From the NCBI GenBank assembly GCA_030704615.1, contig CM060734.1:43462001-43526000 (forward strand): DNA of 64,000 bases. Direction: 5' to 3'. Below, one piece after another: positions 6,745 through 42,582 of this stretch (its first letter is position 1; each line of letters starts with the position of its first letter). Made by a program: the position numbers and the translations under genes. This DNA is from Takakia lepidozioides. Its lineage: Eukaryota; Plantae; Bryophyta. A model generated the notes under the pieces. The model was given only the letters and a program-made list of their open reading frames with translations. It was not told where the DNA came from and made no database searches.

Positions 6745-9073
6745 CTAAACACTCAGTACTGACATAGCATGTCTACACCAGATGTGTTTATCTCTTGGCA
6801 CAGCCTTAGTGAACACATCTGCAACCATCTCTTCAGTGCTACAGAACTCTAGCAGTATCTCTTTACTCTCCACTTTCTCTCGAATAAAATGGTGTTGGAT
6901 TTCTATATGCTTAGTCCTAGCATGAAACTTAGGGTTCTTAGTTAACGCTATACAACTCTAGTTGTCACAAGAGAGCCTAGTAGGATGAGGTTGCTCATGA
7001 CCAATACTCTTGAGTAAACTCCTCAACCATACAATCTCCTTGGCTGCTTGTGTAGCAGCAATGTATTCTGCTTCGGTAGATGACAATGCAACTGTTGCTT
7101 GCCTCTTACTACTCCAGCTAACAGTGGCAGAACTACCAAGCAGGAAAACATAGCCTGTGGTTGACTTCCGGTTATCAGGATGACTCGCCCATCAGCATCA
7201 CAGTATCCATGTAACTCAATATGACCTCTCTACTCCCACTGAAACATAAGCCATGATCTTCCTTTAATATACCAGAAGATTCGCTTTACATCACTCTAAT
7301 GTCGTATGCCAGGATTTACTAGAAACTGGCTCACTACTCCCACAGCAAAAGCCAAGTCTGGTCTAGAACATACCATTAAGTACATCAAACTTCCCACAAC
7401 ACTTTGATATGGAATACTGCTCATAGCTTGCTTCTCTTCATCGCTTTGAGAACACATATATGTACTCAACTTAACACCAGTTTCGAGTGGAGTACTCACT
7501 GGTTTGCAAAAGCTCATTCCAAACTTATTCAAAATAGTTTGAATATGCTTATTCTGACTTAAGTGTAAAGCACCCTTGTCCCTGTCTCGTTCAACTTGAA
7601 TGCCCAAAAAATAATGAATGTCTCTAAGATCCATCATATCAAATGTAGCATGTAAACGATGTTTTGCATATTTCAATGCTTTCACAACATTGCTGACTAA
7701 AATTGAGTCATCTACATACAGTGCAATGAGTACAAACTTGTCCTCTTTGATTTTAATGTACACATTACTATCTGCTGGAGATGCCACAAAACCTTCAGAG
7801 ATTAAATAACCATTAAACTTCTGGAACCAGGCTCGAGGTGACTGTTTCAAGCCATATAGGGAACTTTTTATCAACTTACAGACCAAGTCTTTTTCTCCTA
7901 GAGTAATGAACCCTTGAGGCTGCTCCATATAAACCTCCTCATCCAAATCTCCATTTAAGAAGGCTATTTTCACGTCCATTTGACCTCCAGATTTGATAGT
8001 GCGGCAATAGCCAAAATAGTCCTGATAGAAGATATCTTTGCAACAGGTGAAAATGTCTCATTATAATCCACTCCTTCTCTCTGAAAAAAACCTCTTGCAA
8101 CTAGTCTGGCTTTATACCTTTCCACTGATCCATCTGCTTTAAGTTTGAGTTTATAGATCCACTTACATCCAACAGTCTTTCTCCCTTGTGGAAGTTTAGT
8201 TAGCTTCCAAGTACCATTCTTTAGTAAGGATGCAAACTCTTCATTCATAGCCTCTTGCCATCTTGACGACTCTCTACAACTGAGAACTTCCTTAAATGAC
8301 ACTGGCTCTTCATTTTCAACAAGCATTGTTTGTGACAAATCGAGAGATTCTATGAGTCTTTGACTGGGTCTTCTCTCTCTCATGGACCTGCGAACTTGGA
8401 TATCAATTTGAACCCTAGGTGCTCGTAGTTGAGGTTGAGCCACTTGAACATTTGCTAGAATATTACTTGGTTGTGGTGTCTCTATTTCCTCATCAAAGCC
8501 AGAGTCACAATCTTCGTCCATGTCCAAACCTAGATCCACATCTGATCCCTTCTCAGGCTCACCACCTCGAAGTGTCTTTGGTTTCCATGCTTCATTGAAA
8601 ACCACATCACGACTAACTAACAAGACTTTGTTGGCTAGATCAAACAACCAATAGGATTTATTGGCTTTCGAATAACCCACAAAAATACACTTTGTGCTTT
8701 TTATCATCAAGCTTCTTCCTCTTCTCCTTAGGGATATGAACAAAAGTTTCACAACGTAAATGCTTCACTGAGGGCTTTTGACCAGTCCAAACTTCCTCCG
8801 GTGTCCTTCCTGGCACAGCACTTGTAGGTACCCTGTTTAATACATAGTTGGCCGTTTGCACAGCATCTGCCCACCATTTGTTGTCTAACCCACTATGCTT
8901 CAACATTGTCCTTGTTGCTTCTACCAATGACCGGTTTTTACGTTCAGCCACCCCGTTCTGCTTTGGGGTGTAAGGAGCAGTCAATTGACGCTCAATTCCT
9001 TCTCTCATGCAAAATTGAGCAAAAGCATTTGACTTGTACTCCCCTCCATCGTCAAAGCGCAATTTCTTGACTC
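6745..9073 (-). pseudogene. Copia pol 3' part: integrase core, RT, RNase H (frameshifted)
   Basis: FDDGGEY, QNGVAERKNR, GCKWIYKLK, YKARLVARG, MDVKIAFLNG, LYGLKQSPRAW, LYVDD, SRPDL. Confidence 0.95.
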
Positions 9074-10795
9074 TGTCATGGTTTTAGTCATGGTTATCTA
9101 GAATTACCTACTTCTAGTTAACTAGGACATTTTAGATATTTATATTTATATTTATATTTTGTGTGTTGGGACTTCATTTGGTCTCACATGCCAAGTGAGG
9201 TGTCGAGCCTCACTTGAGACATGGAGATAGGTTTTCCCCTTATGAGTGTTGAGGAGGCTCATCTTCTTGTAGTTGAGCCTCCATGAGCTTCTCTCACCTC
9301 CATAGCTCTAGGTATTGAGAGGGAGTGTGTTGAGGGCTTTGTAGGGTGGATTCCTTTAGCTTGGCTTGACTTAGTTTATGTGATAGAGTGGATTTCACTT
9401 GGAAGGACTAGGGCTTGTTCTTCATGTGATTGTTTCATGCTTTGAGAGCTTTCATTGTCTTCTACTTCTCTCATTTCTCATCTTTTATCACTACAAGAAG
9501 ATCACCTTATGCTTGTGAGTGCGGAGTGTAAGGATTAGTTTTGTACTTGTATTTTAAAGAGGTTGAGAGCTAGGAGAATTTAGCTCTTGTATCACAAGGC
9601 TTGCAAGGGGTTGCAAGGAAAGGTGCTCGAGTATTGCATGCACCAAGGAGTTGGAGAGCTTGAGAAGAAAGCTCTTGAGTCACAAGATTTTGCAAGGATT
9701 GTAAGGAAGAAGTCTTGTGTGGAAGCATGGATTCTAGGGTTTGAGAATCCTTTGTATGCATTATGGAGTCGATGGTGTGCGCCATGGCTTGTGGAGAGTG
9801 ACTAAAGGCTTGTTAGTGCTCATTTCACTATCAAGCTAGGGTTAAGCAAGTTCAAAGTGTGGATGTTGTGGAAGAGAAGCCAAGGAGCTATATATGCTTG
9901 GGCTTGAAGACAACAAGGGCAAGCACTTGGAGAGCACTAAGAAGCTCAAGAGGTTTTGAAAGGGAGCATGTGAAGAAATCTTCCAATCATGGTGGTGGAG
10001 CCAAGCTTAGGGTGCCATTGGAAGGGCTTGGAGAACATGTGGTGGGAAATCCTTGAAGGGAAATCATCATTCAATGTATGCATAGCTTCACCCTAACTAT
10101 GTAATGTGACAAGAGGGGGAGGCAATACTTGGCTATTCATGCTCTTGGTAGTGCGAGCTTTGTGGTGGATAGTTGACCAAGCAAGTGGTGCATGTGTGGA
10201 GCATGCTCGCTTGAGTTTGTAAGTTCAAGTTTGAGAAGGGGAGCTCTTGAACTAGCAAGAGGTGAAGGCCTTTGAGATCCATTTGTGTGTGAAGTGGAGA
10301 GGTGTTGATTCATGTTATGATGAAGGAGAGCAACACATAGGCCAAGAGGTCATGAAACATGCATTCAAATGACCACGGGAGCACATGGATGATGGATTGG
10401 TGCAAGACCCCAAATGAGGCATATGGCGTGAGAGTGGGATCCAAGGCGGATTGCTTGGGAGCATTATTGTAAGTGACAAGCATTGCTCCTACACATTGAG
10501 ATAATTTGTGTTGATTTGGAGCAATTGTCAAGTGATGAGGAGACAAATGCATGATTGCTCGGCAATGGAGATATGGTAGTTTGCAATCAAATCCCAAGGA
10601 CTAGAAGGGGGATTGATTTGGTGGACAATGACTTGCAAGTTGAGTTGGACCACTCTTGGTTGCACATTGGGGTGGAAGAGAGCAAGAAGATGCCTCTTAT
10701 GACCACCTAGAGACCATATTTTTGCTTGAGTAGAAGCATAGAAGTCAAGGACTTGCATTCTAGCTCTTCATTACAAACCCTAGTAGTGTATGCTC

Positions 10796-11190
10796 AGACT
10801 ATACCTCTGTTAGTATACCAAACAGGAGCTTGTCCCTTTGACTATACCTCTGTTGAGGTATCACCATATGTGAATCCTAATGTGAGACTATACCTCTGTT
10901 AGTATACCAAACAGGAGCTTGTCCATTTTACTATACCTCTATTGAGGTATCACCATATGTGAACCCTAATCAGCTCAGACTATACCTCTGTTAGTATACC
11001 AAACAGGAGCTTGTCCCTTTTACTATACCTCTGTTGAGGTATCACCATATGTGGACCCTAATCAGCTCAGACTATACCTCTGTTAGTATACCCAACAGAA
11101 CCCTCATTTTCAGACTATACCTCAGTAAAGGTATCATCAACATAAGGGACCCTAGCAACCTCAGACTATACCTCTGTTAAGGTATCAACA
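10796..11190 (+). repeat. Tandem repeat of ~90-bp units with ACTATACCTCTGTT subunits in the retroelement leader
   Basis: Units start near 10796, 10885, 10977, 11069; each contains the small hairpin ATACCTC-TGTT-GAGGTAT or a near variant. Confidence 0.9.
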
Positions 11191-11997
11191 GTGAAAGGAC
11201 TTAGTGAAATTTAAGGGCGTTTGGAGGATTGGAAGATATTTGAGGGCCCTTGGAGGAGTATTTGGAGGATCTTTGGGGTCCTTGGAGGAGTGTTTGGAGG
11301 ATCTTTGGGGTCCTTGGAGGACCCTTCGAGGAGCTTGGTGGACAATGTTGAAGAGCTCTTGAAGGATTGATTGAGGGATATTGAAGGATACTTGCCACGG
11401 CCATACAAGCGAGTGGATAGAGACAGGAGGGAGAGTGGTGGGATGAGAGCATTCTGGGGTTAGGAATTGCTTTAGTTTCTCTTCTCCATAGTCTTTCACC
11501 CTCTCTGTAGGCCAAAACCTTTCCGTAGGTGGAGGCAAGAGTCAGTCCGGGTTTGGGCTGGGGTGTCCTTGCAGGAGCGACACTGTGGAGTGTTTTTGGT
11601 GTGGGGGAGTTGTTGTCTTGATTTTCTTGTGTTTGGATCCCCTCCACACCTGCATGCTTGACTGTGCGCCATGTTAGCTTTGTGTGGGCGCTTGTTTTCA
11701 TAGGAGGTTGGTCCGGATTTGATCACCGGCCAATCCTAGAGTATGCTGTCGGTGGTGAGGCTGGAGTGATGACCAGCAAGACCACCAGTGTTTCTTCTAT
11801 GGTGAGGCTGGGTTGATGACCAGCAGACCATAGGAGTGCTTGCGGTGGATGCAGGTGCAGGTACAGGTCTACGTTAGAAACCTATTATTCCTGCTTGAAC
11901 CAGTAGCCGCAACAGGTTCTTTACCCGGTTACCTTGTAGAAAGTGGGGATTAGAGACAGGTTGACAACCGGTTGGGTTGTGAGTTTTCATCACGGAG

Positions 11998-13314
11998 GTG
12001 CCACCAGCTGCTGAGGGGAGTGCCGGTACAAGCACCAGCGATACTAGTGGGTACACAAGACAAGGTGTGCGGTTTAGGCCACTTTCACCTTCAGTGTCTT
12101 CTGAGGAAGGTTCAGACTCGGAGTCAGGAGGATTCTCGCCGAGGGTGCAAGTCATTTCCGTGCCATTGTTGTGGGACACGATGGAGGAGATGTATGGAGC
12201 TACCAAGGGGCCACGTAGGTTCTCTGGAGCTGTGGGCACCATCGAGCTTGATGACTTTATACAAGAGTTTGACAGTTGGTGTGATTTGCAGCAAATGCGC
12301 AATCCACAACTGTTTACACCATTTATGGCGTGGAAGGGGCTATTCCAGCATCTTGAGGGGCCGCCCATGGATGATTACCATGAATTTAGGCGGGGACATG
12401 CGGTGGAGATTGAGGAGTGGTGAGAGTATTGGTCACCTAACTATGTCTCAATCACTAGAGGCACAAGGGCAGCGGTGACACCAGCAGCTACACAAACATC
12501 TCCAACTACAAGCACTAGTAGTGGAACAAGTAGTGTTGGCACTTCTGCAGGTGGTACCAGTTCAAAAGGTGCTACTATTCCTCCTGCCACAATTACAACA
12601 CATGTGCCTAGATTCAACCCGGTGGTGGAGTTCTTCCAGGAGTTGCGGAGGAACTACCAAGGTGTACAGACAGAGAAGCTGCGAAGTTTGCAAGACTTCC
12701 AACGCAAATCCAGTGAGAGCTTGCGAGAGGCCTACACTCGTATGAGGCGCTTGATAAGTGTGACCCAAGGGGTTATTGAAGCTCAGGCAGTCCAGTTCTG
12801 GTATGGAATTTTGGACAAGGAGCTCAAGAGAAGGGTGCGGGATGCAACCCTGTTACAAGCGGCCCAACCCACATTAGCGGATGTGTTTCTGCTGGCTGAG
12901 CGGATTGAGCTCAACATGGTGGAGGAGCGAGTTGTTACCATTGGATTTGGCAAGGACATGCCTGCACGAGGTGCAGCTGCCAGCCAACAGGTACAAAGGA
13001 CTGCCCAACAGCGTGGTCAGGGGGGCAAGGTTGCCCAACCCAAGTTCCATGGAGCTTACAGGGGACCTCAGGTGCAGAAGCCCGTGGCATCTTTTGCAGG
13101 CCAACAGCAACCAGAGGTGATATGTTGGACATGTAGAGGACCCCATGTCAAGAGAGATTGCCCAGAGAGTGGCAGAAGGCCGGCACAAGCACAGCCTGCA
13201 CAGTTGCAGTGTGGGCATTGTGGCAAGTATGGGCATGGAGATGCCCAGTGTTATGACTTGCACCCTGAGTTGCGCCCAGGCCAGTTCCAAGGGAACAATG
13301 GTGGCCGGGGGTGA
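11998..13314 (+). pseudogene. Gypsy gag with two zinc-knuckle-like motifs (one in-frame stop at 12421-12423)
   Basis: RFSGAVGTIELDDFIQEFDSW, FQRKSSESLREAYTRM, CWTCRGPHVKRDC, CGHCGKYGHGDAQC. Confidence 0.85.
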
Positions 13315-13415
13315 GGTGGACCAGCCCAGAGAGGACGAGGTGGTCGGCACAAGGTGCAGGCTAAGGGCAAGCTCAACATGGCCAAGGACGCGGAGGTCAG
13401 GGTGTTGACCAAGAC

Positions 13416-14880
13416 ATGGCCAACCGGCTTCAGCAGCTAGAGCAGAGGCTCGCTGCCATGGCTACAGCTCAGGTGGTACCGGCTCCCAGGCGGGATGGTC
13501 CACCTCCTGCTCCTGAGGGAGGAGATATGGGAGGCATGGGATTCATGTGCGGAGCAGCACTACCACTAGTGCAGGTGGAGTCTGCTGCAGCCGTGACTCG
13601 AGGAGCAGCACGAGTTCCTGAGCCACGAGGTGCAGAGGTGGAATTGGATCCACAGCGTGGGGAGGCAAGCCGTCAGGCGAGGCTTCCTCAGTCATTCACA
13701 TTGGCGGAGACAGTGTCGACGCCATCCATGGCACCTAGTTCTCGCCCGACTGTTACCGAGGCGGAGGTTACTATGCCATTGGGGAGAGCTACACGTGCAG
13801 CACTGACACCTGCTACCAAGGCTAGTGCAGCCGGTGTGTTATTGGGGGCAGCCACCTCTGTGTGTCAAGCCCCACTGTTCTCGGCAACCATGATTGCGAC
13901 GCCGGGGGTAAGACCAGCTGCAGTGTTCAGACTAGCAGCAACACTCTGCGAGAGTGGGGAGGTCACTTCATCTTCTGCGGAGTTACTGGAAGGTGTAGTG
14001 GCAGAGGGATCCTCGGATTTGAGGGTCAAGACTGCCACGGTTGCGCCATGGCAAGCTGCAGCTGCCAGGTTGACGGAGCTGCCAGCTAGGCCAGCCTTTG
14101 AGCGCGCCATGGTGACACCTGGAGTTGTCTTGTTAGACAACCAGGGAGGCATTTTCACTTTGAGTGGACCAGCAGGCAAGAAGTACCGGCCACTGCGGGT
14201 CTTGGACTCAGGAGCTCAGCCACTGATGTTGGGCAGAGCTGCTATTGCAGGTTTGGGCCTCATGGAGGCGGATATGGAGCCTTGTCCTTTCCAGATACAG
14301 ACATCTCTGGGAGGATCAGAGCAGGCTCGGGGCATGACACGGCGTGAGTTGGGCATTGGACTACAACCAGATCATCCATTAGATGGCTCAGTGATGCGAG
14401 CCAAGGCCATTGTGACAGACGCGGTCTCTTACGATGTCCTTGTTGGTGGGGCAGTGTTATATCCCATGGGCTTCACCCTGGACTTTTGGGAGGAGTCAGC
14501 ATCCTACAGGCCTGGATGGCAGTCAGGGGATGGTCGTCGTGCACAGCTCCCTGTGACATTCATTGGGGGTATTGCGGCTGCCCAGCGGGGCAAAATGCCA
14601 ACACTAGCCGCCTTTACAGCTGCAGTTAGTTGGCCTGGAGAGTTGCTGGAAGGCAATGCCCATGCAGAGGATGTGCCACCTCCAGCAGAGCAGGATGACA
14701 TGCATGGTACGGCGGAGTTGCCTGCCATGGTTGCTCACACTAGCAAGGATTTGCAGCAGGCTGCTGATGGACGGGTACAACAAGCCTGGGTAGAGGCCTT
14801 CGTACCGTCAGGAGAAGAGGAGAGTGCGGTGATTGCACCAGGACCACCTCAGTTGTCGCCATTGGACACCACACCTCTTG
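13416..14880 (+). CDS. Pol N-terminal region with aspartic protease
   Basis: VLDSGA (~14198-14215) and downstream YDVLVGG motif. Confidence 0.8.
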
Positions 14881-14889
14881 TGTGGCAGT

Positions 14890-15860
14890 GCCCGGATGAA
14901 GGCATATGCCTTCTGGACTTGTTTGGCGGGATCAGCACTGGATTGGCTGCAGTACTGCAGGCAGGTGTACGAGTTCGACGTTACCTGTATGTGGAGAGGG
15001 ATGAGACTGCACGACGCGTCTCACTGCGCCATGTTGCTCAGTTGGTACAGCAGTACCCTGATTTGTTGCCAGTGTCTGCAGTTCGTGGATACCAACAAGC
15101 CTTGCCAGCAGACATTTCGTTGCTGGGGGCGCAGATTTGGAGCGGGTTGGCTCCATTGATCTGGTAGTGGCAGGTTGGCCCTGCCAAGGGCATTCATCAG
15201 TCGGGCATGGCAATGGATTGCGAGACTCAAGGACGGGTCTGTTTTGGGAGATGGTGCGGATTTTGCGCCACTTGCAGCTTCATCAAGCTGTATCTCCAGC
15301 ATACATCTTGGAGAATGTGCCACTGATGGGTGATTCTCGGGCCAGGGTGATGGCCAGTGTGCATCAAGTCCGGTGTGGCTTGGGTCAGCAGTGTTGCTGG
15401 ATGCAGCTGCAGTGGGGTCATGGGCTCATCGTCCACGGCTATGGTGGACTAACTTGATGCCACCCGCACTGCTCAAGCGTGCATTTGATGGGGTGCAGCG
15501 GCCAGCACACCTCACAGTGGATAGCATTTTGGACACAGGGAGGCAGTCTCAACGTGTGAGACACGATGACCGTTGCCTTTGGCAGTGGTCAACAGGGTGG
15601 GTCAACCACGAGCAGCATTACCTACACTGCTCAGCTTCCCAGGATCCCATGCTTTTCGGGATGGTGGACCTGGCCTCTTGTGGGATAGCCAGTTGCAACA
15701 ATTAGTGGAGCCCAATGCTGACGAGCGCGAGCGGGCGATGGGTTTTACCACAGGTACCACGGCGGTGCCATCTCTTTCTGAGGCATCACGTCGTCAGGTG
15801 TTGGGGCAAGCAATGGATCTCAATTGCTTGACCTGGATTATCAGCTTGGCTATGGCTGAG
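14890..15860 (+). pseudogene. C5 cytosine DNA methyltransferase domain, DNMT3-like (three frameshifts)
   Basis: Motifs in order: I LLDLFGGISTG, II YLYVERD, IV VVAGWPCQGHS, VI YILENV, VIII AHRPRLWWTN, IX ERERAMGF, X RRQVLGQAM. Confidence 0.92.
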
Positions 15861-16277
15861 CAGCGCAGAGTACGGAGTACACTTCCCTTCATGGTCTCCC
15901 TGCCTACCGAGACGGTACAGGCAGCAAGTGGGGGCGAGCAGGTGAGGACCACGAGGTGCAGGCCGCATCCATGGCACACGTGGGAGGTGCTTGAGGTTCA
16001 GAAGGAGTTGGCAGCCAAGGTGGCGGCGATGGATCAGGTTAGGGATTTTTCTCGGATTGAGGAGGTCCTCAAGGATGGGATGATGGGGCAGGATGAGACA
16101 TTGTCATTGACAGAAGAGGCAGTGGTCACTGCTCAAGAGGTTGCAGCATAGCAACCACGGGACGCGTCTTCTACCTCTAAGCCTGCTGGACTCAAGGTTG
16201 CAGTCACGGAGGACAACTAGGAGCCTGATGTTGGACCTATAGTCACCGAAGGAGAGAGACGACGTATACGGCGGTTC

Positions 16278-19200
16278 TTGAGGGCTTACAGGAACTGCTT
16301 TGCCTTCAGTTTGAAGGACTTAGGAGCACTGAAGGGTCAAGAGATTCGCATTGAATTGGCTACTGACACGCCAATCTTTCGGAGACCCTATAGATACAGT
16401 GACATGGAGAGGTCCTTGATTCAGATGAGAACTCAGAACCTTTGGGAGGCTGGTTTGGTGGAGCTATCTGGGGGAGGGTATGCTTCAGCCACAGTGATGC
16501 CAGCCAAGAAGGATGTCTTTGGCAATTGGACGGAGAGACGTATGTGCGGTGATTACCGGCCTGTAAATCGTCAGACCAAGTCCGATAGGTATGCCATGCC
16601 AACACCAGAGGAGATCTTTGATGCCATTGGGCATGCCAAGGTCTTTAGCACGTTGGATTTACGATCCGGATATCACCAGTTGCCGATCAAGGAGGCGGAT
16701 AAGCAAAAGACGGCATTCTGGGGGATCAATGAGCACGGGAAGGATTGCCTATACCAGTGGCGGTTCTTACCATTTGGGCTTAAGAACGCTCCGGCAGAGT
16801 TTCAGAGAGTCATGGACAGGATTCTAGCAGGGGTGGAGTTTGCTCGGTGCTACATAGATGACATCATCATCTTTAGTGCTACGGTGGAAGAGCATGAGAG
16901 ACACCTTCAGGGGGTATTTGAGCGCTTGAGGGCGCACGGATTGAAGTTACATCCGGGAAAGTGCAAGTTTTTCCACAACCAGATTGAGTATCTGGGTCAC
17001 ATGATATATCCTGGAGGATTGGGGGTACAACAGACTAAGGTAGAGTCCATTGCACAGGTTCCACGCCCCACGGATGTGAGCCGAGTTCGAGCTTTCATGG
17101 GGTTAGCAAACTATTATAGACGGTTTGTTAAGGGATTTAGTGCCATTGCAAAGGCTCTAACCAAGCTGACCAAGGTGGACCAGGAGTGGCAGTGGGAAGA
17201 TGAGCAAGAACAAGCTTTTCAAGAGCTCAAGGCGAGGTTGACCTCGGCGGCCATCTTGAGACGACCTATCAGGGGGCGTCCTTTTCAGCTGCATACAGAT
17301 TGGAGCATGCTAGGGCTTGGAGCGGTGCTCACACAGATGGATGATGAGGGAAGAGAGTTCGTAGTGGCTTATGCTAGCCGCTCGAACAACGTTGCAGAGT
17401 CTAAGTATAGCTCATATGAGGGAGAATGCTTAGCTGCAGTGTGGGCCGTGGCACACTTCAGGTGCTATCTATACGGCAATCTCTTCACCCTTGTCATGGA
17501 TCACCAACCACTCAAGTGGTTGATGGAGTCAGACAAGCTTACGGGGAAGCTTGCATGGTGGGCACTCGTCCTTCAAGAGTATGACTTTTAGGTGGTGCAT
17601 CGACCGGGTTTGGTCAATCGCAATGCAGATGGGTTGAGTCGCAATCCATGCACGAGCCAGCAGGATGACACTGGAGCTCGGTGGCATGGTGAGACGGACG
17701 AGGAGATGGTGCTCGGATGGCATGCATCTGCATTTCTGTGTATCTTGGCAGCGGAAGGCCAGGTTGGACCTGCAACAGGGATGACTGTAGATCAAGTGTC
17801 TGAGGACCCTGAGGCTAGCAATGAGCAAGGTGGCGCCAAAGATATACATGAGGATTCAGTTGTGTTGGACTACCTCCGCACTGGAGACACTGCAGCCACT
17901 GTGACTGCCAAGGAGAGGGATCGGATCCTACAACGAGCCAAGAGGTTCAAGTGGGAGGGGACACACCTGCTCCGAGTGTGGGAGGGTGGTCGAGTGAGGA
18001 TTGTGCCTCACCCAACACAGCGGGCACGGTTAGTGCGGCATGCCCATGAGGAGTTGGAACATTTTGGGGCGCGACGCACTCATAGTCTACTGTAGGGGCA
18101 GTATTGGTGGCGTGGTATGCACACAGAGGTGCAACAATTTGTGGCTAGGTGCATGGTGTGTGACAGGGTGCGTGCTTTATTCAACGCCCCTACTCCACAA
18201 TTGCACCCTCTTCCGATCATGGGATTGGGCTACAGGTGGAGTCTTGACTTCGCAGGGCCGTTGCCACTGACCATGCGCCACAACAAGTACGTGTTGGTGA
18301 TGGTGGAGCACTTCTCCAAGTGGATTGAACTGGTTCATTCCTGATAAGGCTAGTGAGGGAGCTGCGTATGCATTCTTGGATTGTGTGCTTAGCCGATTCG
18401 GTGCTCCAGCTGAGGTACTCACGGACCAAGGGAGAGAGTTCTTGGGGGAGTTTCAGGCTTTGTGTGACAAGGCCTTGATAGACCACCGCACCACTTCTCG
18501 GGATCATCCTGAGGCCGATGGCTTGGCAGAGAGAGTTGTTCAGACAGTAAAGAGGGGTTTGCGCAAGTATGGCTTGCAGAAGAGACACCTAGGAGATTGG
18601 GACCTTCACTTACGGTTAGCCATGGGTTACAGGTTCAGCAAGCAAGCATCACTTGCCTCCTTCTCACCATACTTTATTCTCTTTGGCCGAGAGCCGGATT
18701 TGCCTACATCCATTCGCAGAGAAGCTGCTACAGTTCTTAACCTTGACGATCCGGACGTGTGGGCACGTGCATGTAAGCAGCGTGCAGAGTTGTTCAAGAA
18801 AGTCATGCCCATGGCTTTCGAGAACCTTGCCATTGCACAACATCGTGATATGTTGAGGTATGCTACCATACGTGGTGGGGGCTATCATCTTGGGGTTCGG
18901 AGATTCAACCCTGGTGACTATGTTTATCTGCAGCAAACTGCTCTTACGACCTTGGATGTGACTGCAAGACGTACTATTTTGAGGGTTCGAGAGGTGTTGC
19001 CCTCAGGAGTCCTAATCTTGGAGGGTCGGGATGGCATGATTTGGAAGGACCATGTGCGTAATTGCGCGCCATGTCACCTTCCAAATGTTGATGGAAGGGT
19101 TGACCCAAACCTGGCAGTGGTACCTGCAAGTTTGAGGTGCATGTTGTGTGGGTCTGTTAGAGGGGCAGCCACCATGCTGGTGTGTGATCAATGCTCTAGA

Positions 19201-19281
19201 GGTTGGCATATGGGATGCTTGACTCCACCTCTTGAGATGGTTCCTGATGGGGATTGGTTATGTCCGCATTGCATTGGATAG
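16278..19281 (+). pseudogene. Gypsy RT, RNase H, DDE integrase and C-terminal PHD finger
   Basis: [32 protein letters not shown]; LHTDWS; integrase SLDFAGP / LTDQGREF / GLAER; C4HC3 finger CMLC..CDQC..WH..C..WLCPHC (19138-19275). Confidence 0.95.
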
Positions 19282-20137
19282 TGGGAGTGGATACAACCAT
19301 GGAAGGCTAACAAGGAATGCAAGGCCAAGCTACTAGGAGACCAACACACGAGATCCTGACTCAAGTTCACAGATTGCAAGACGGCAACTAACGATGGGGT
19401 TGCTCTTGTACCCGACCTCTTGGTCTATAGAGTTTGAGTACAATAGGGACAGTGATAGAGGACTTAGTACGGCTGTGGCTATTACATCTTGTAGCTATCT
19501 GGAGTTAGAGGGACCTCACCACCAGCTAGGGGGGCGATTGTGGTATAGCTTTCTAGGATTGTGTGCTTAGATAGTGTGGTGGACAGCGATGTATATTGTG
19601 GCACGATGCTTAGGTGCACGACAGCTGTCATGGTTTTAGTCATGGTTATCTAGAATACCTACTTCTAGTTAACTAGGACATTTTAGATATTTATATTTAT
19701 ATTTATATTTTGTGTGTTGGGACTTCATTTGGTCTCACATGCCAAGTGAGGTGTCGAGCCTCACTTGAGACATGGAGATAGGTTTTCCCCTTATGAGTGT
19801 TGAGGAGGCTCATCTTCTTGTAGTTGAGCCTCCATGAGCTTCTCTCACCTCCATAGCTCTAGGTATTGAGAGGGAGTGTGTTGAGGGCTTTGTAGGGTGG
19901 ATTCCTTTAGCAAAGGTGCCCTTGGCTTGACTTAGTTTATGTGATAGAGTGGATTTCACTTGGAAGGACTAGGGCTTGTTCTTCATGTGATTGCTTCATG
20001 CTTTGAGAGCTTTCATTGTCTTCTACTTCTCTCATTTCTCATCTCTTATCATTGTGGTATAGCTTTCTAGGATTGTGTGCTTAGATTGTGTGGTGGACAG
20101 CGATGTATGTTGTGGCACGATGCTTAGGTGCACGACA

Positions 20138-21868
20138 ACTCGCTTCCATGTCTGTGTTTCCACCAGAGACTTATAGATCTTGAACTTGTCTAAAGCTTCA
20201 CTTTTATTCTTTAGAAAATAAACTAGTGTTCTTCTAGACAAATCATCTATGAACGTCATAAAGTATTTTGCTCCTCCAATTGATATTGTTTGCATGGGGC
20301 CGCAAACGTCAGAATGTACCAACTCCAACAACTCCACGGCACGACTTCCTCTTCCTTTAGGAAATAAATGCCTATGTTGTTTGCCAAATATGCACTCTTC
20401 GCAAAAAAAGGTTCCAACTGAGCAATCAATATTGAAATCTTGAACCATGTTCTTAGAATGCATTAGACGTAGAGTTTTAATACTGAGATGGGCCAGCCTA
20501 CGATGCCAAAGATCAACTCTTCTGTCTTTGACGATTTAGGCACTTTCAGACGCTTTATCTTGAGGTAAGACTGAAGAAGCACACAACTTACACAAGCTAC
20601 CTTCTCTCACCCCCTTCGCCACCACATCTCCATATGTTGTCTTCAAAAGACAATAATTAGCATGAAACTCAAGTTGTAATCCAGAGTCAGTAACTTTACT
20701 CACTGACAGTAAATTCTTGGTCAACCCTGGAACAAATAACACATCATCTATATACTTCTTTCTTCCTTCTTGCATAAAGCAAACTTGGCCTTGACCCTCA
20801 ATTATGTGACTACTGTCGTCTCCCAAGTAAACCTTCCGAACAAGATCCCATTGTTTGTACTTTACAAACAGATCTTTGTTAGAGGTCATATGTTGAGAAG
20901 CCCCCGAGTCAATATACCAGTCATCAAGATCCTTTGAGAAAGAAGTAGAGAGAGTTGTAACAAATAGTTTCTCACAATCAATACTATCAGCATCCTCCAC
21001 TGAGTGAGCTTGGGTCTTTCCATCTCCCTTCTTCATCTGCCCGTCTGCCATTCTCTTCCTACATTGCTTCGCCATGTGACCGACTTTCTTGCAATAAAAG
21101 CATTTACCCTTAAATTCTTTTTTCGTAGGTGTAAGAGAACTACTTGACAAACTATTTGACGACCCTTTTGTTGGTGTACTACTAAGACTCATATTGTTAT
21201 TTTTATTTGTTTCTGAGGCTCATTTCTTTTTATTAAGACCTGATTTCCTTCCAACAAATAAAGCAACATTCTCAGTTGTCCCAACCCCGAAATCGCTTCG
21301 CCTCATCTCTTCTTGTAGTAGCATTCTAGTTACCCTTTCTATAGTCAACGCTTGCTGACTACTAAGAGAAATGACTAGGCTATCAAAAGATTCTGCCTAA
21401 TAAGGTGACTACCTGATCGTCTGCAGACACAGAAGACCCTACCCCTGCCAATTGATCGATTAATGATCTAAAGTTACTAACATGCTCTGCTACAGATTCT
21501 GATTCAGACATTTTTAAATGGAGCAGTCGTCTTCTTAAATAAAGCTTAGAAGTGACATCTTTTGTTTCAAATACTGTCACTAAATGATCCCACGTTGCCT
21601 TAGATGTTGTAGCCTGACTGACATGCAAAAGCTGAGAGTCTTTTAAGTTTAATAGGATTGATGCAAGTGCTTTTCCATCTCTCTTCTCCCACTCTTTCAC
21701 AGCATTTTGATCTGTAGCAGCAGGCTTCGCTTCAATCCTGTCTACTATGGACCAAAGATCTCTATCTAATAATAGCATTCGGATCTTAAGCTTCCAAATA
21801 TGGAAGTTTTCTCCGTCAAACGTATCTATTAAATGGAGTTTTCCCGAGTTCCTGACTACTCCAGCCAT
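20138..21868 (-). pseudogene. Copia gag, zinc knuckle, protease and integrase N-terminus
   Basis: FDGENFHIWK gag start, CFYCKKVGHMAKQC, WYIDSGASQHM, CEECIFGKQHR, LVHSDVCGP. The frame rejoins at 9073 (KRV|KKLRFD) once the nested Gypsy is removed. Confidence 0.95.
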
Positions 21869-23539
21869 GCTTACGAATTGATCTAGTTCTCTCTTAGAAA
21901 CGACACTGGCTTTCCGCCTTGCTCTCTAAGTGGCTCTGATACCATGTCACAGTTCCTAAAATCCCATAGACTTGACAAGCAAGACAATGACAACAGGAGA
22001 GAGATAGAACGTTTTCACAGAGCATAACATAAGTCAAGGGCTTCCATGGGAGGGACGACTACATGATGACTGGCGCGAAATTCACGCAAGCATTAGCTAG
22101 TCAGCAAGCACATATATATATATATGGCTAGTAATTCGTTGAGCTTTACATAGTGTTGATTGCAAAAAAGGATCTGCCTTGGAAGCTGTACGGTATAACA
22201 GCCAAGTAGAAGAACTCTAGTCTACGTCAGAGGCTTGACTTGTGATATGGAAAATTAGCTGCAGTACCTCTTCTGTGGTCAATAAGTTGCAGACATCCGA
22301 ACTCTGCTTCCCAAACGCCAAGAACCCAATGATGTGCAGGCCCGCATCGTGTACTTTGGAGGTCAAATTTGTGATCGCCCCCTTCTTGACGTCTTCCATG
22401 CAGGACTGCACAAGCATGTTAACCACTGCCTTTCGAATTGGTCGTCCTGCTACCACCCTGTGTTGACGACAAAAGTTGTGAACGATATAGCGTCCTCATG
22501 CGCCGAGCAAAAGGACCCATAGGGGCGAATGAAGCACTCGAGCCATTTGTTGACAGAAAGTTTGCCATGACCATATTTGTAGGTCTAGAAATAAACACTT
22601 CATCTTGAGTCTTGAGCACTTCCGCAGCCATCTCAGCATTGGATATGAGATGATCCATCCACAGAAAACACAAAGGCTCGTACGTTTCTGCCAACTTTGC
22701 AAATGCTTGATGAGGTAGATCATTTGGGAAGGAGAGTAGGGAGCCGATTATGGGCCATGGCCGAGGTCCCGGAGGAAGACACAAGCTCTTTCCAATCGTC
22801 AGCTGAAAGAGTATTGTTAATCCAGTCAGCACTACAGGAACCCACATCCGTTGCAGCACTAGCACGAGCTCCAAGGCCACCAAGCTACCTACAATTTGCC
22901 ACCTTTCCAGCCGCAGACTTCCCATCCACCTCAACGCCCACTCTCTCACACCAGGTCTTTCATTACCAGGACATATTTAATGCTCTCCACCTCCATGAGA
23001 CGGAGGAGGATAGAGGTGAGAAAGACAATCTTGCAAAGAGAAGAAGAAGATGCTTGACATAGAAAACTAGCATATAAGTCAAATCCTACGTCTGCTTTTG
23101 TGATACATACTACATACATCACACCATGTGCCATCCATGATGTATGCATATTATGTCAAAGAAAAAGAAAATGGAGTCCTCATGAAGCATAACTTATTGT
23201 AAGGTCTCATGTCTCATCCTTATGGAATAGTGCCTTCCATTGGAAAGTGGACACTTGGAACCCTAATATTGCCATTTGGACTCATTTCTCATCCTTAAGG
23301 AATATTGCCTTCCATTGAAAAGTGGAAATATTACCTTCAATTGGAAAATGGACATTTGGAATGCTAGATCACCTCATATAATGCATAACTTAGTCTCATG
23401 TCTCATCCTTAAAGGAATACTGGGGTACCCTGTGTCGTTGGCCCAAACAAGGATGACACTGATATAGTAAGAGTTGGATCTCCTACAGGCACCAAAGTGA
23501 CAGTTCAAATACCTCATGAAGGAAACCCAGCATCATCTA

Positions 23540-24605: not shown

Positions 24606-26489
24606 TGTCGTGCACCTAAGCATCGTGCCACAACATACATCGATGTCCACCATACATTCTAAGCACACAATCCTAGAAAGCTATGCCACAATGATAATGA
24701 AAGTGAACACAATGGAAACACTCCACTCTTGAATCCACTCAATCACATAAACTAAGTCAAGCCAAGGGCACCCTTGCTAAGGGAATCCACCCTACAAAGC
24801 CCTCAATACACTCCCTCTCAATACCTAGAGCTATGGAGGTGAGAGAGGCTCATGGAGGCTCAACTACAAGAAGATGAGCCATCCTCAACACTCACAAGGG
24901 GAAAACCCATCCCCATCTCCCAAGTGAGGTTTGACATCTCACTTGGTATATGAGACCAAATGAAGTCCCAACACACAAAATACAAATATAAATATCCAAA
25001 ATATCCTAGTTAACTAAAAGTAGGTAATTCTAGTTAACCATGACTAAAACCATGACAGCTGTCGTGCACCTAAGCATCGTGCCACAACATACATCGTTGT
25101 CCACCATACATTCTAAGCGCACAATCCTAGAAAGCTATGCCACAATCACCCCCCTAGCTGGTGATTAGGTCCCTCTAACACCGGATAGCTGACAAGTATC
25201 CATCTCAATAAGATCATTGCTTGGTCTTCAATTGCACATCTCCCAATTTTCTAAAGTATATGGATCAAGAGGCCGGGTGCAACAAGAGCCCCATCGTTAG
25301 TCGTCTGCTTGCAATCCATAATCTTCAATTGAGTATCCATGGCGTTGAGCTCCCACCAGCTAGACCTTGGATCATTTGTCAATTACACCATTGTCATACC
25401 CATTACCTATGGCCAAAGCATCGTGGACACAACCATTCTCCACTAGGAATCTCCTCAAGTGGCGGTGTCAAGCATCTCATGTGCCACCCCCTTGAGCATT
25501 TGTCACACACCAACATGGTTACGGCATCACCAGCATGCCCACATAGCATGCAACGCAACCCTGCAGGTGCCACTGCAAGGTTGGGATCTATCCTCCCATC
25601 CACATGTGAAAGGTGACATGGCGCACAATTGCGCACATCTTGACCCTCCAGAATCAACACATCCTGAAGGCAACACCTCCCGGACCCTTAGAATCACACG
25701 CCCTGCTGTGACATCCAAAGTCGTAGGTGCTGTCTGCTGCAGATACACATAGTCCCCAGACATCATTCTTTCTGTTCAATTCCCATAGATATCTTTCTTA
25801 GCAGTCACCACCATTGCCGAGGCATATTCCCCGCCTGACAACTCCATCAATCCAGCTTCGAACAACTTCATAGTCCGTGACTGGATCAAAGACCTCTCCA
25901 TGTCACTATACCTATAGGGCCTTTGAAAAATTGGCGTGTCATTTGCCAAATCAATATGAATCTCCTGGCTTTTCAAACTCCCCAAATCCTTCAAACCAAA
26001 TACAAACTAATTTCTATAAGCCCTTAGAAATTGTTGGATCCTCCGTCTCTCTCCTCCGGTTACTGTAGGTCCAGCATCTGGTTCCCAATTGTCCTTAGTG
26101 ACTGCAACCTTGGGTACACCAGGCTTGGAGGTAGGAGACGCATCCTTTGGTTGCTAGATAACAACCTCTTGGGCCTTATCCGCCCACCCTGACCGTGGCG
26201 TAGCCTCCACTTGCTCTGCCATAGCCACCTTGAGAACATCCTCTGGGGAAGAAACATTCTCAACCTCTTCAACAACATTGGCCACCTTGGCCTCCAACTG
26301 ATCCTCAGTGTATGGCTCTCCCCACTTCTCATATTGTTGCTTGAGAGATCCAAGGACTCTCTCTTTCCGCATCTTATCCCACATCTGCCATGGGTATTTG
26401 CACCCCATGATCTTGTGCTCGCCCCCACTCACTACCTCAACCGTCCCAGTTGGCAGAGGGGATACAATACCAAATGGGAGTGCAGAAGT

Positions 26490-27480
26490 AGCCACCACTG
26501 TCTGCAACCTCCGTTGCTCAGCCATGCACAAGCCAATGACCCATGTCAAGCAATTTATATCCATTGCTTGACCTAACACTTGTCGGCGTGATCCTCTGAC
26601 AAAGCTGGCATAGCTGTAGTGTCCATGGCAAATCCCATTGTCTGCTCTTGTTCATCCACATTGGGCTCCACCAATTGTTGTAGCACACTGTCCCAAATCA
26701 ACCCAGGACCATTGTCTTGAAAAGCATGAGACGAGGGAAAGCTCATAAGCGTATGCAAGGCTGCACGTGGCTACCCCAATCGATTTATCATTGCTAAAGG
26801 TGGACGGTCATCATGTCGCACTCTCTGTGGTTGCCTCCCTTGGTCCAAAATGCCCTCAACTGTGAGATTGGGTGGCCGTTGAATGGAATCGTATGCTCTC
26901 TTGAGCAGCTCTGGTGGTGCAAGATTGGTCCACCACAATCGAGGTCGATGCGCTCGTGATCCCACCGCTGCTGCATCCAATAGCATCGCCGATCCAATCC
27001 AAGACCGTACCTGATGCACACTAGCCATAACCCTGGCCCGAGAGTCCCCTATAAGAGGAACATTCTCCAAGATATAGGCTAGAGGTTGCACTTGCCTCGT
27101 CTGCAAGTCACGCAACACTCTCAACATCTCCCAAAACAAATGCGATCGTGCATCATGGAAGCCATTCCCATGACTTGTGGGAGAGTGTCCTTGGCAAGGC
27201 CATCCAGCTATCACCAAGTCAATGGCAGCATGCTGGTCCAAATCATCCGCCCCAACAAGGTAATGTCTGTTGGCAAGGCCTTTTGATACCCTTGAATTGT
27301 TGAGAGAGGCAACAACTCAGGATACCGGTGTGTGAGCAAGGCGATGTGGCGCATAGAAATACGCCAAGCTATCTCATCCTTCTCCACATACAAGTACTTG
27401 CGTACTTTAATCCCTGCTTGCAACACTCCTGCAAGCCCAGTGCTCATGCCTCTAAACAGGTCTAACAAACAAATCCCTGA
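26490..27480 (-). pseudogene. DNMT3-like methyltransferase domain of copy 2
   Basis: LLDLFRGMSTG, VIAGWPCQGHS, YILENV, AHRPRLWWTN, EQTMGF, LGQAM; frameshifts and a stop. Confidence 0.9.
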
Positions 27481-28679
27481 GTCAGGTGGTTGCCAGGTAA
27501 TGGGCACTCTGTCCAAATGAGCTAACTGAGGAGGTCCAGGTGATGTCACTGAACTCCCCTCACTCACCAATGGATAGGCCTCCTGCCATGCTTGGTACAC
27601 ACACTCGCATGCTACTTGATGCAAATTCCCAACTGTACCCCACAATGAGTTATTCACAGGCACATGAGGAAGCAACTCAGCCTTGTATGCCAATTGTTTG
27701 TCCTCATCAGGTGGTGGCCTATCATCTGCATGGCTATTGCCCTCCACGAGCTCACCACCCCAAGCCACCACCCCTGAGAATGCAGCCAATGTGGGCATTA
27801 TGTTCCTATGATCCACCGCTACATTCCCAATTAACCGCACTGGGAGCAGTGCACGTCGACCATCCCCTGACTGCCATTCCAGCCTGTAGGATATCGTTTC
27901 CTCCCAAAAGTCCAAAGTAAAGCCCATCGGGTATAACACAGCCCCACCAACAAACACATCATAAGATATCGCGTCCGTAACTTAGACTACTAGGTTCGTA
28001 ACATAAACCTGCACCTGCATCCACCGCATGCACTCCTATGGTCTACTGGTCATCAACCCAGCCTCACCATAAGAGAAACAATGATGGTCTGACTCGTCAT
28101 CACCCCAGCCTCACCACCGACAGCACGCTCTAGGATTGACCGGTGATCAAATCCGGACCAACCTCCTATGAAAACAAGTGCCCACACAAAGCTAACATGG
28201 CGCACAATCAAGCATGCAGGTGTGGAGGGGATCCAAATACAAGAAAATCAAGACAGCAACTCCCCCACACCAAAAACACTCCTCAGTGTCGCTCCTGCAA
28301 TGACACCCCAGCCCAAACCGGACTGACTATTGCCTCCACCTACAAGATTTTGGCCTACAGAGAGGGTGAAAGACTACAAGGAAGAGAGACTAAAGCAATT
28401 CCTAATCCCAGCATGCCCTCATCCCACTACCCTATCTCCACACTCTCTTGTTTGAACAATAGACAAGACTCCATTTCAAGGATCTCTCAAATAACTCTCG
28501 GCCAGGAGCCCTCAAGAATATGTCTCTCAAACGATCTCACTAAGGCTCCCAATCCTTGCACAATGGGACTCCGGAACAGTACACCAAGGCCCCAAGAGCC
28601 TACCAAAACTTTGCCCTCGAGGACCCCAAATAGTCCCTCACACAAGTCGCCAAAGACTCCTCAAGCTCGCCAAATATTG

Positions 28680-28860
28680 GCCTCCAAGGACCCCAAATAG
28701 TCCTCCAAAGAACTCCAAATGGTCCTCCAAATGGTCCTCCAAGGACCCCAAACAGTCCTCCAAGGACTCCCAATGGTCCTCCAAATAGTCCTCCAAGGAC
28801 CCCAAACAGTCCTCCAAAGACTCCCAATGGTCCTCCAAATAGTCCTCCAAGGACTCTTCC
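28680..28860. repeat. TCCTCCAA-based short tandem repeat in the retroelement leader
   Basis: Many TCCTCCAA units; the counterpart TTGGAGGA units lie at 11220-11330 in copy 1. Confidence 0.85.
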
Positions 28861-30066
28861 TATGTCACTGCGTTCCCAATGTGTTCCCAAGTTCCCAATA
28901 AGTTCCCAAAGTTCCCTAAGAATATTCCTGAGAATATGCCATAGTATTCCCCCAGTATTCCCCTGGGCCTATACGTATTCCCCTTGTATTCCCCTTGGAA
29001 TAGCCATTTCCCCCTGGCAATAGCCATTTCCCTATACATGCTGGTTACTTCAATGCCAAAGCTTTCTCCCCATAAAACAGACTGGATACATTCACGGACC
29101 TCTGAAAAATTTAAGGAAGAACTAGCTATAACAACTAACCCCAGCACAAAGCCCCAGCACACAGCCCCAACACTGGTTCCCTCGGTGCTTGATCACCTCC
29201 CCTACTCTGCACACAAAGGTTTACTATTTCATGAGCAGAAACCATGAGCCATGAGCCATGAGCCGCATGAGCCGCATGAGCGGTGAGCCGAAGTCTAAGA
29301 TACGCGGATTTCATGAGCGGACTCCTCCAAATTTGGAAATGCGGCAGATTAAACAAGTATTAAAATAATAGTTTTTTATTTGACCTTGCCGTTTTTGGAC
29401 GTTCCAGATCATGTAATGCGGCGAAGATATGTCGTCAGTAACAAGTCCGCTCATGGTTTTTTAGATCCGCTCATGGAAATAAGTGACCGTGCAACGGGAA
29501 ATCCAGTATACCACTGCAAAAGGACGTCGCATACTGGCCTGTATAGAGTATTCCGCGGTTTTACATGCCTTAACATTGGAATGAAGCTGACCCTTTTGCC
29601 GCGATTGAACCAATGGAGTCTGCACCAATACAGTCTGCAGTACTTCACAATTCTGTCTTCTTCGGGTATTCGGCGGGAAAGGTTTGCAACTGAACTGGGA
29701 AATAAGGTGCCGCATTAGGGTTCGCACGTGCGAAATTTCGGAGCGGTTTGGTGTTGGCGAAGGCCGCCTCTACCAGTACCTACGACGATACTTGGAAATG
29801 CGGCGCCGCATTTCCTTGTCGGAGGTCGAATGAGGAAAGCAAGTTTTCGGAAAGCAGAAAAACATGAACCCTCCAACATACAAAAATACATGCACGTGGA
29901 AACAAGTGAACGATATAGTAATATCTTAGTTCGAGCAAAACAGGTTACTGGTAGGCAAGACATATGTCGGACCTTTGTGTGGCCAGAGTCTGAGGTACTG
30001 GCAGCAGTACAGTTCTACTATCCGAAAAGGATGGGCGTACCATTGTATGTGGACCGCAAGCCAAGC

Positions 30067-33000: not shown

Positions 33001-33674
33001 ATGACATTGCCATCGACTTCGGGAGGCAGAAACGTTACCTTTCTGACTGGGAATTTGGCATAGTCGAGAGCAGCCAGCTCGGAGCGAGAACCATCGAGGT
33101 GATGTTGTCGTAGGAGCTGCACAATGGACCGGGTTGGAGTTATGCTCGAGGGCACATACGTAGCACCTACAGAGACGTCCATGCCGGATTTGAACGACCG
33201 TGTGGAGGACATGGGTACCTCAATGCAATCATCTTCCTCGTCGGAAATGTCGAATACGTCCACACGAGAAGCTATGGAGGGTCTTGACGGTCCAGGTCGG
33301 GAATGATTATCGTTGCATACCTCTCTGTTGGCAGTGCCCGCCTCTCGGTTTCCGGACTCCTTTGTGGATGGTGTGGGCAGCGACTGATTCGGAAAGGGAA
33401 TGGGCATTCCCACAGCTCGGTACAGGATGGTGTCTGACGGGGGAACGTGCCATTCGATTCCGCAACCTCCGTCGTTACCTAGCACGACAATGGTCTCGTC
33501 AACCTGTCCAGGAACATCCTTCCTTTCTTCTTCCAAATAAACTGTGCCCGGTTTGAGCTTGAATTTGGAACAAAGGTAAGTTTCAGTCACTCTGCAAAGT
33601 CCTCCCTCGTTTGGGATCCAGGCTCTCCCAAGTTGCGGAGGACAGCAAACTATAGCGTAGGAATTCGGAGCCAT
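30067..33674 (-). pseudogene. Transposase: GCM-like zinc domain, MULE-type DDE core, SWIM finger (one premature stop)
   Basis: DGHPW..CAGKLRC..CAHC..C..HVGVHCHP; VMFDH, FMADNAQA, CGFHW; intron 31580-31498 (GT..AG); PNTNMAESVH then TAG at 31429-31431; SWIM YTITISELPTCNCTDF..CKHLYYV. Confidence 0.8.
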
Positions 33675-34103
33675 CGAACACCGCACGGAGTTGGCAAGTG
33701 CGAGGTTCAGTATAGCGACAGACCAAGGCTCACAGGCACCATCTAAGTGGATCTGCGGAGTCCATCGACGATTGGAAGTCGCACATTGAAGTGGAAAGTA
33801 TTGTTTCAAGCTACATGCATGAAGGTGGGAGGTTTGATTCCATAGCCAGTGAGTATGACAATGATGGCCGATTCGGCGACGAAATAACATATCCTGACAG
33901 TTTCTCCTGAGGGTGGATCCAGCAGTATTCTCGGTGCAGACAGGAACGTTCGCACTGACAAGTGCCAGGACTGCTGGTTAAAACGGTCAGACAACCAAGT
34001 TGTGCTCATCAAGACTGGCCGCAATTGTGTTGTTTCGGAACAATGCAACCCATTGAGGTTCCAGATTTCCCGTCCCGAGTGATTCTTTCGATTGCTGGTG
34101 GAC

Positions 34104-42326: not shown

Positions 42327-42582
42327 ATGTCCGACATGGCGTTACTCTGGTATATTCTTGACACATGACTCACATACCGGTTACTCTGCTATATTCATCC
42401 GGACAGACACGTTGTAGAAATGAGACATCAAATTGTAAACAGTGGGCCAATTCCGACAGTTATTCAACACAATGAAACACAATCATATAGAAGTGAGGTA
42501 CGATGGGTTTATTGATCGGACACGATGTCTCTCATTTACCAACTGCAGACAAAACTAAGCCCTTCCTCCTTCTACATGGGCT

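Follow-up and report, generated by a model that had tools for sequence, protein, structure and literature searches.

The window, by which we mean the whole 64-kb stretch of Takakia lepidozioides DNA analysed, harbours two broken Ty3/Gypsy copies, each of them carrying a DNMT3-like C5 cytosine methyltransferase (DNMT). Copy 1 lies on the forward strand between two target-site duplications ACTC (9070-9073 and 20138-20141), inside a Copia element with RVT_2 ORFs on the left and Pol_BBD and zf-CCHC on the right (Pfam); the two Copia parts split by the insertion occupy 7296-9073 and 20138-21900 of the reverse strand. The left end of copy 1 is a repeat, A1 (9074-9490, TGTC...TCA), and within it a predicted transcript start and self-primer (9261-9273) is the 13-nt complement of a self-priming-type primer-binding site (PBS, 9490-9502) placed directly 3' of A1. 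Translation then revealed Gag (12181-13440), with zinc-knuckle-like Cys/His motifs and 75% identity to the Marchantia protein P0001 across a 105-residue stretch, followed by an aspartic protease (14100-14540, LDSG at 14202), which is 57% identical to P0001 and is recognised on relatives as Pfam Asp_protease. Downstream are the DNMT domain (14895-15860), a conserved stop with readthrough-type context, TAG-CAA-CCA, at the end of ORF1 (16149-16157), reverse transcriptase (RT) and RNase H (16221-17588; Pfam RVT_1 and RT_RNaseH, RT YIDD at 16851), an integrase region with D, D and E motifs (17592-19125; Pfam rve) and a C-terminal PHD finger (19126-19281; Pfam PHD, E 1.2e-10). A polypurine tract (PPT, 19527-19537), conserved in copy 2 and in the metagenome loci L002, L035, L028 and L086, precedes repeat B1 (19538-19623), repeat A2 (19626-20051) and repeat B2 (20052-20137), whose terminal GACA is the right end of the copy. 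B1 and B2 show 2 differences in 87 bases, and A1 and A2 show 2 substitutions in 416 aligned bases plus an indel. The Gag-PR-RT-RH-IN order, the DDE integrase, the PPT and the target duplication are those of Ty3/Gypsy elements; in place of two identical full terminal LTRs, the ends are A and B-A-B.

Copy 1 carries in-frame stops at 12421, 13312, 16218, 17589 and 18093 and, outside the DNMT, frameshifts near 13400 and near 18340, and is therefore dead. These five extra coding stops, with about five frameshifts in all, are found although A1 and A2 are near-identical, and copy 1 may already have been defective at its last move. The three breaks in its DNMT are absent from many contigs of other copies of the family, which is very abundant (80,917 contigs in one run of the best-matching organism). 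The break near 15574 also recurs in a contig filed under another organism label. Copy 2, on the reverse strand, retains a B1-A2-B2 end (24606-25146), an RT start fused by internal deletion to the integrase tail and PHD (25412-26084), the same TAG-CAA-CCA (26148-26156), a DNMT3-like domain with two frameshifts and one stop (26517-27477) and a protease tail plus leader (27853-28850). Gag and most of RT-IN have been deleted from it while DNMT, stop and PHD remain, and no A1 of copy 2 was found in the 64-kb window; it may be a non-autonomous form that moved in trans. Copy 2 is also a mosaic, its leader and 3' repeats being about 90% identical to copy 1 and its protease tail, DNMT and RT start just 69-74%. 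Both copies have long leaders with tandem repeats (92-bp units at 10796-11354; 12/21-bp units at 28620-28877).

An earlier note on this DNA had read C5 methyltransferase motifs in two frameshifted copies, ascribed them to a DNMT3-like enzyme and suggested a PF00145 search, and each of these readings was borne out. In copy 1 the motifs span 14919-15815 in canonical order, with the catalytic PC, ENV and RxR: I (LFGGI, 14919), II (YVERD, 14988), IV (GWPCQ, 15173), VI (LENV, 15308), VIII (AHRPRLWWTN, 15424), IX (ERAMGF, 15729) and X (LGQAM, 15801), read in frames 3, 3, 2, 2, 1, 3 and 3, which places the three frameshifts near 15133, 15374 and 15574. The domain of copy 2 is more decayed, its motifs I (LFRGM) and IX (EQTMGF) being degenerate. 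Both copies scored above the PF00145 cut-off (E 1.5e-12 and 1.1e-11), and a chance origin of the motifs was rejected. The placement between protease (14202) and RT (16851) stood as well, but not the idea of one open frame shared with the RT, since the TAG at 16149 comes in between. When the unbroken Marchantia protein P0001 was used to search the PDB, all 25 of 25 hits were DNMT3A/B/C. A profile built from 24 family sequences scored DNMT3 proteins at 1e-16 to 1e-21, DRM-type enzymes at 1e-7 to 3e-9 and HhaI/HaeIII at 1e-6 or weaker, and the AlphaFold model of P0073 (pLDDT 78, pTM 0.82) found its best match in DNMT3A/B. By profile and fold, the domain is nearer DNMT3 than DRM, DNMT1, DNMT2 or bacterial enzymes; a search of the ESM Atlas returned generic C5-methylase clusters only. 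Host DNMT3s (PpDNMT3b, PMC6453930; human DNMT3A/B) have the same unrearranged motif order, DNMT3-type motifs VIII and IX and fold, whereas the element domain is about 21% identical to DNMT3A, lacks introns within the element coding region, is borne by an element and is not accompanied by any Pfam match to PWWP or ADD in the element proteins. Motif IV reads GWECQ instead of GWPCQ in 16 of 206 proteins (P0040-P0063 and related ones, including Closterium P0413).

The ends of the element, with their split repeats, palindromic junction and self-priming site, go beyond what the earlier note had described. The anatomy is A-PBS-gag-PR-DNMT-stop-RT-RH-IN-PHD-PPT-B-A-B with 4-bp target duplications, and this DIRS-like arrangement of split repeats is complete in copy 1 and in L035, a locus of a different family with the same layout and unrelated repeat sequence, and partial in copy 2 and L002. 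Target duplications of 4 bp were found at 4 of the 4 loci with both ends, and all left ends examined (11 of 11, 9 distinct flanks) start at TGTC. The B|A junction (19620-19629 in copy 1, 25054-25063 in copy 2) is the palindrome GACAGCTGTC (GACA-GC-TGTC), a predicted integrase cutting site, and the element ends are its halves minus the central GC. Exact GACAGCTGTC occurred 7 times in 881,765 bases, always on the 3' side of the coding region of these elements. Two of the 7 belong to a second architecture, RT-RH-DNMT-IN-PHD, in which, with DNMT after RNase H, the palindrome with its usual flanks was seen at only 2 loci. L028, which has its DNMT before RT, shows the palindrome with one mismatch. 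The flanks that follow GACA at 19623 were mixed, in at least 31 and at least 20 contigs from two runs of one sample, with a flank agreement of 0.39 and 0.41; these figures cover the loose ends listed, and beyond them conventional B...A insertions may occur. An A-to-B joint was present in 4 of 4 runs; it differs between contigs, and some variants carry the first (PBS-like) bases of the PBS. Three loci (L015, L016 and L017, the last with a target duplication) end at a single B without A2-B2, and such A...B forms might stem from double cuts, from recombination between B1 and B2 or from repeats collapsed during assembly. L086 (1-9285), lying within a cyanobacterial genome assembly, is an element with a single internal stop and 127-bp identical ends, which are either collapsed repeats or a circle.

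Directly 3' of A, a 13-17-nt complement of a site inside A was found in the window, L035, L086 and L028, the two sides covarying so that the letters differ, and the pair was the longest inverted repeat of the stretch searched in 4 of the 4 DNMT-before-RT families examined. In a random control, 0 of 1935 window stretches reached 12 nt of complement to A1. The pair did not turn up at any of 3 searched loci with DNMT after RH, two of which have short tails. Minimum-energy and centroid RNA folds alike put the 5' end on the PBS, the overall stability being ordinary (z 0.25 and -1.87). There is no TGG after A1, and a tRNA-type PBS was rejected. Very probably, then, the RNA would start inside A and its first 13-17 bases would prime reverse transcription in the manner of Tf1. 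The Tf1/Sushi, Tcn1 and TAR elements (PMC6317226) likewise dispense with a tRNA primer and have a PBS complementary to the predicted RNA 5' end, but they possess ordinary LTR pairs, which the present element does not; the terms 'methyltransferase' and 'PHD' are absent from the main text of that survey.

As a PPT precedes B and a PBS follows A, the established pathway of LTR reverse transcription would yield a linear cDNA of the form B-A...B-A. For such a cDNA to give insertions that read A...B-A-B, the end of A would have to be joined to the start of B and the product then cut at B|A. We consider it likely that the ends would be joined (A|B) into a 2-LTR circle or a head-to-tail dimer, that integrase would cut GACA-GC-TGTC in the left LTR, and that the element would insert as A...B-A-B with loss of the central two bases; a staggered cut after CA would leave two-base overhangs like processed retroviral ends and so account for the lost GC. 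Rather less probable is the formation of A...B-A-B with no joined intermediate, whereby an unusual strand transfer would copy B2 from an RNA extending through B2 and integrase would act on ordinary linear ends. Linear-end integration is indeed the rule for LTR elements, and neither the circle nor the linear cDNA is itself among the integrated products and contigs examined, from which both are deduced; yet the PPT before B1 and the PBS after A1 predict B-A ends, an internal palindrome supplies both insertion ends, one from each half, and the A|B joint varies whereas B|A is constant. For the joined-end route there are known parallels. A circular intermediate is the usual model for tyrosine-recombinase elements with split direct repeats. 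The A1-coding-B1-A2-B2 layout is the same as that of PAT/Ngaro-type DIRS elements and of SymbioDIRS-Dnmt3 (PMC5890265), from which the window element differs in having a DDE integrase, a protease, a PPT and 4-bp target duplications; membership in DIRS/Ngaro was rejected on account of the rve integrase, the 4-bp duplications and the lack of any Pfam match to a tyrosine recombinase in the element. The integrases of foamy virus and HIV-1 have been reported to cleave palindromic 2-LTR junctions (PMC1180852, PMC4372172), with processed ends resulting from a cut at a palindrome in a circle, as proposed here. In those viruses, however, the cut falls on the joined ends themselves and the route is optional. 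In the present element, cutting is predicted at a templated site inside the LTR, and integration would ordinarily proceed this way.

The second unusual trait concerns expression. In both window copies TAG-CAA-CCA lies 3' of the DNMT, in frame with RT. We compared 35 rows covering DNMT and RT start, namely 33 of the 68 metagenome loci fetched and the two window copies; most are near-copies of one family, about six families being independent. All 35 rows have a stop at the homologous position, and in 33 CAR-YYN comes after it. Reading upstream from RT, the first in-frame stop has CAR-YYN behind it in 32 of the 35; in the remaining 3 a second stop intervenes, copy 1 being one of them and retaining CAA-CCA. 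The same context was found at only 11 of 298 decay stops. In L086 and L028 this is the single stop in about 2200 codons, and many database ORFs stop 70-130 residues past the DNMT. Exact UAG-CAR-YYA, the consensus for efficient readthrough in plant cells (PMC3159437), is present in both window copies and in L011, L028, L029, L042, L043, L054 and L086; the L005-type family has CAR-CCC, which is not the exact consensus, and TAA replaces TAG in 8 of 35 rows. The stop context of the window copies is thus that of Tobamovirus-type readthrough, with the difference that it separates Gag-PR-DNMT from RT and that one family has CAR-CCC. The conserved stop, the CAR-YYN after it and the ORF ends just past the DNMT indicate, at the level of sequence, that the DNMT is the last domain of ORF1 (Gag-PR-DNMT) and would be a Gag-level product, with RT-RH-IN-PHD beyond the stop. 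The stop is likely to be leaky and the enzyme made in bulk with the particle protein: we are fairly confident that most ribosomes would stop after the DNMT and that the enzyme would be packaged at Gag stoichiometry, probably to be released by the protease. The earlier note had imagined it packaged along with RT, which has to give way to the Gag level because the DNMT lies before the conserved stop.

The most likely substrate of the enzyme would be the cDNA within the particle, and methylation of cDNA has been proposed for SymbioDIRS-Dnmt3 (PMC5890265), whose domains methylate CG in yeast. Chances seem about even that the DNMT would methylate the cDNA prior to insertion, so that the copy would arrive marked like host heterochromatic DNA, with the PHD likely guiding integrase to chromatin with unmethylated H3K4. 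The best solved matches of this PHD are CHD4, PHF12, KDM5B/A and PHF21A, several of which read unmethylated H3K4 (unmodified H3). The CpG depletion of the element (0.49) is like that of the neighbouring Copia (0.36-0.52) and is therefore silent on self-methylation; CpG/CHG ratios were uninformative. With the anatomy as proposed, the DNMT might instead act in trans, be it on the chromatin of the host, on the target site or on elements that compete with its own. Gag-level expression would supply far more enzyme than one cDNA needs, and the resemblance of the PHD to readers of unmodified H3 would suit such a role. We nevertheless regard it as unlikely, as in the second architecture the DNMT comes after RNase H and before integrase, which puts it at Pol level and close to the cDNA, and the K. 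nitens methylome is reported as ordinary (PMC5890265). Slightly more doubtful still is the view that the domain persists because it binds DNA or RNA or has a structural part in the particle, its catalysis being weak or irrelevant. The KnitGypsy-Dnmt3 domain of Klebsormidium gave no methylation in yeast, a result that its authors call inconclusive (PMC5890265). Against a non-catalytic role, PC is retained in 175 of 206, ENV in 188 of 243 and RxR in 204 of 247 proteins covering each motif, counts which take in decayed copies.

The TAG itself could be taken for a 3' splice acceptor or a reinitiation point, Pol then being made from a spliced RNA that perhaps skips the DNMT. It fits a YAG acceptor in frame with RT, and the L005-type family has an ATG two codons past the stop; nonetheless, the 40 bases upstream hold just 15-33% T in 9 of 9 rows, the ATG is missing from the window copies and four other families, and the conservation lies 3' of the stop, fitting CAR-YY, so that we hold this reading improbable and keep to readthrough. 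Our preferred account, which we judge moderately probable as a whole, is that both copies are dead Gypsy elements of the KnitGypsy-Dnmt3 lineage that would have used UAG readthrough for RT-RNase H-integrase-PHD, an end-joined circle opened at the palindrome and methylation of their own DNA.

The relatives show how widespread this lineage is. Matches with an E value of 1e-30 or better came from 245 clusters (50% identity), and among the best 150 of these, 92 had a retroelement domain beside the DNMT and 58 the DNMT alone. DNMT-before-RT relatives were found in Marchantia, Calypogeia, Riccia (a fragment), Sphagnum, Closterium and Klebsormidium nitens, with multiple copies and near full-length ORFs in Marchantia polymorpha; these liverwort and Sphagnum relatives support its presence in land plants. 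The second architecture, RT-RH-DNMT-IN-PHD, was found in the chlorophytes Chlamydomonas eustigma, Haematococcus and Scenedesmus. Among viral and prokaryotic data, 17 IMG/VR loci gave short, weak methylase matches only, as did 5 of 6 GTDB loci, the sixth being L086, whose place in a cyanobacterial assembly is likely a eukaryotic carry-over. The dN/dS of the DNMT was 0.093 between copies 1 and 2 (with dS near saturation), 0.108 between L028 and L029 (0.094 for the RT of the same pair) and 0.071 between L028 and L086. All between-family pairs with a finite value fell at 0.07-0.19, that is, under a Ka/Ks of 0.2, and decayed near-copies compared within families gave 0.37-0.75. These values support purifying selection on the DNMT, with dN/dS about 0.1, as estimated from coding sequence. 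The earlier note would have withdrawn its reading had the domain been confined to decayed copies evolving neutrally; unbroken frames exist and evolve far from neutrality. A recent passive capture of a host DNMT3 fragment, for which one could cite the broken state of both window copies, was rejected as extremely improbable, being contradicted by this range, by the retroelement neighbours in 92 of the best 150 clusters, by the unbroken frames under selection and by the DNMT and RT trees, which share their main groups.

The link to Klebsormidium was also upheld. The K. nitens protein GAQ93235.1 has the domains zf-CCHC-protease-DNMT, ends just past the DNMT and before RT, and thus shares the Gag-PR-DNMT order of the window element; it is colinear with Marchantia P0001 over 569 residues (E 1e-54), with 36% identity in the DNMT. 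From its domains we infer that it is a KnitGypsy-Dnmt3 copy, and by homology the window copies are assigned to that lineage. In a quick RT tree of 34 rows, one branch separated the two architectures with a support of 96. A FastTree of 141 DNMT rows, which left out proteins with under 270 matched residues, gave the same split (support 98), placed GAQ93235.1 on the DNMT-before-RT side and required one change for that group; two changes were needed in a 33-row DNMT tree because P0069/P0070 stood apart on a long branch. Copy 1 clusters with Marchantia and Sphagnum sequences, in keeping with a bryophyte host. The trees are unrooted and were built without DNMT outgroup or host DNMT3, and they do not set the direction of the domain move; the simplest history compatible with them is one old capture in green plants. 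Thus, instead of a separate land-plant capture, trees and range point to one old green-plant lineage, while de Mendoza et al. 2018 (PMC5890265) called the KnitGypsy event 'an independent acquisition in the K. nitens lineage'.

Elements of this kind are therefore already known from K. nitens (PMC5890265), where KnitGypsy-Dnmt3 is likewise a Gypsy element whose DNMT3-type domain lacks introns and evolves under purifying selection, and where a one-line note in the legend to Fig. 4 describes its repeats as 'the same as that of a DIRS retrotransposon', as found here. The lineage described here extends to land plants, Closterium and chlorophytes, and the accessible text of PMC5890265 is silent on readthrough at a stop, on self-priming, on a palindrome at the junction and on target duplications, and does not mention a PHD. 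A 2025 survey (PMC12344493) cites, in its accessible part, only the 2018 report for streptophytes. In the literature searched, mostly open access, we found no report of land-plant or chlorophyte members, nor of readthrough, self-priming or the palindrome in these elements; a PHD together with unequal LTR subparts is on record for Gypsy-7a_cRei (PMC9940879). We put forward only tentatively the broader reading of a green-plant-wide lineage with an obligatory 2-LTR circle cut at an internal templated palindrome, a Gag-level DNMT3 that methylates extrachromosomal DNA before insertion, and a single capture before the chlorophyte/streptophyte split, the domain later being moved across RT-RNase H.

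Among green plants, a retrotransposon-borne DNMT3 had been described from one alga, and it now appears in an abundant lineage under selection. As members exist in Marchantia polymorpha, a genetic model, the use of a host-type silencing enzyme by a transposon becomes testable there, and the stop after the DNMT predicts how much of the enzyme should be made and where. The anatomy of the ends bears on the old question of whether 2-LTR circles are real integration precursors, which in these elements may be the normal route. Such elements would probably escape LTR finders that depend on paired LTRs, and ORF1s of relatives have been annotated as host 'hypothetical' or methyltransferase genes.

Elsewhere in the window, ORFs of 860 and 453 aa (30067-33977, reverse strand) had no Pfam match; in the ESM Atlas, the 860-aa ORF has neighbours at 0.90-0.91 among which are MULE transposase clusters, no more than a lead. 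Tandem arrays with 53-bp and 32-bp periods (34101-35759 and 42137-42337) have in common a near-palindromic core, GGAAATGCGGCGCCGCATTTC. A second, unrelated Gypsy element (47454-50445, reverse strand) retains protease, RT, RNase H and the integrase zinc finger, and shows little CpG loss (observed/expected 0.9) together with CHG loss (0.62).
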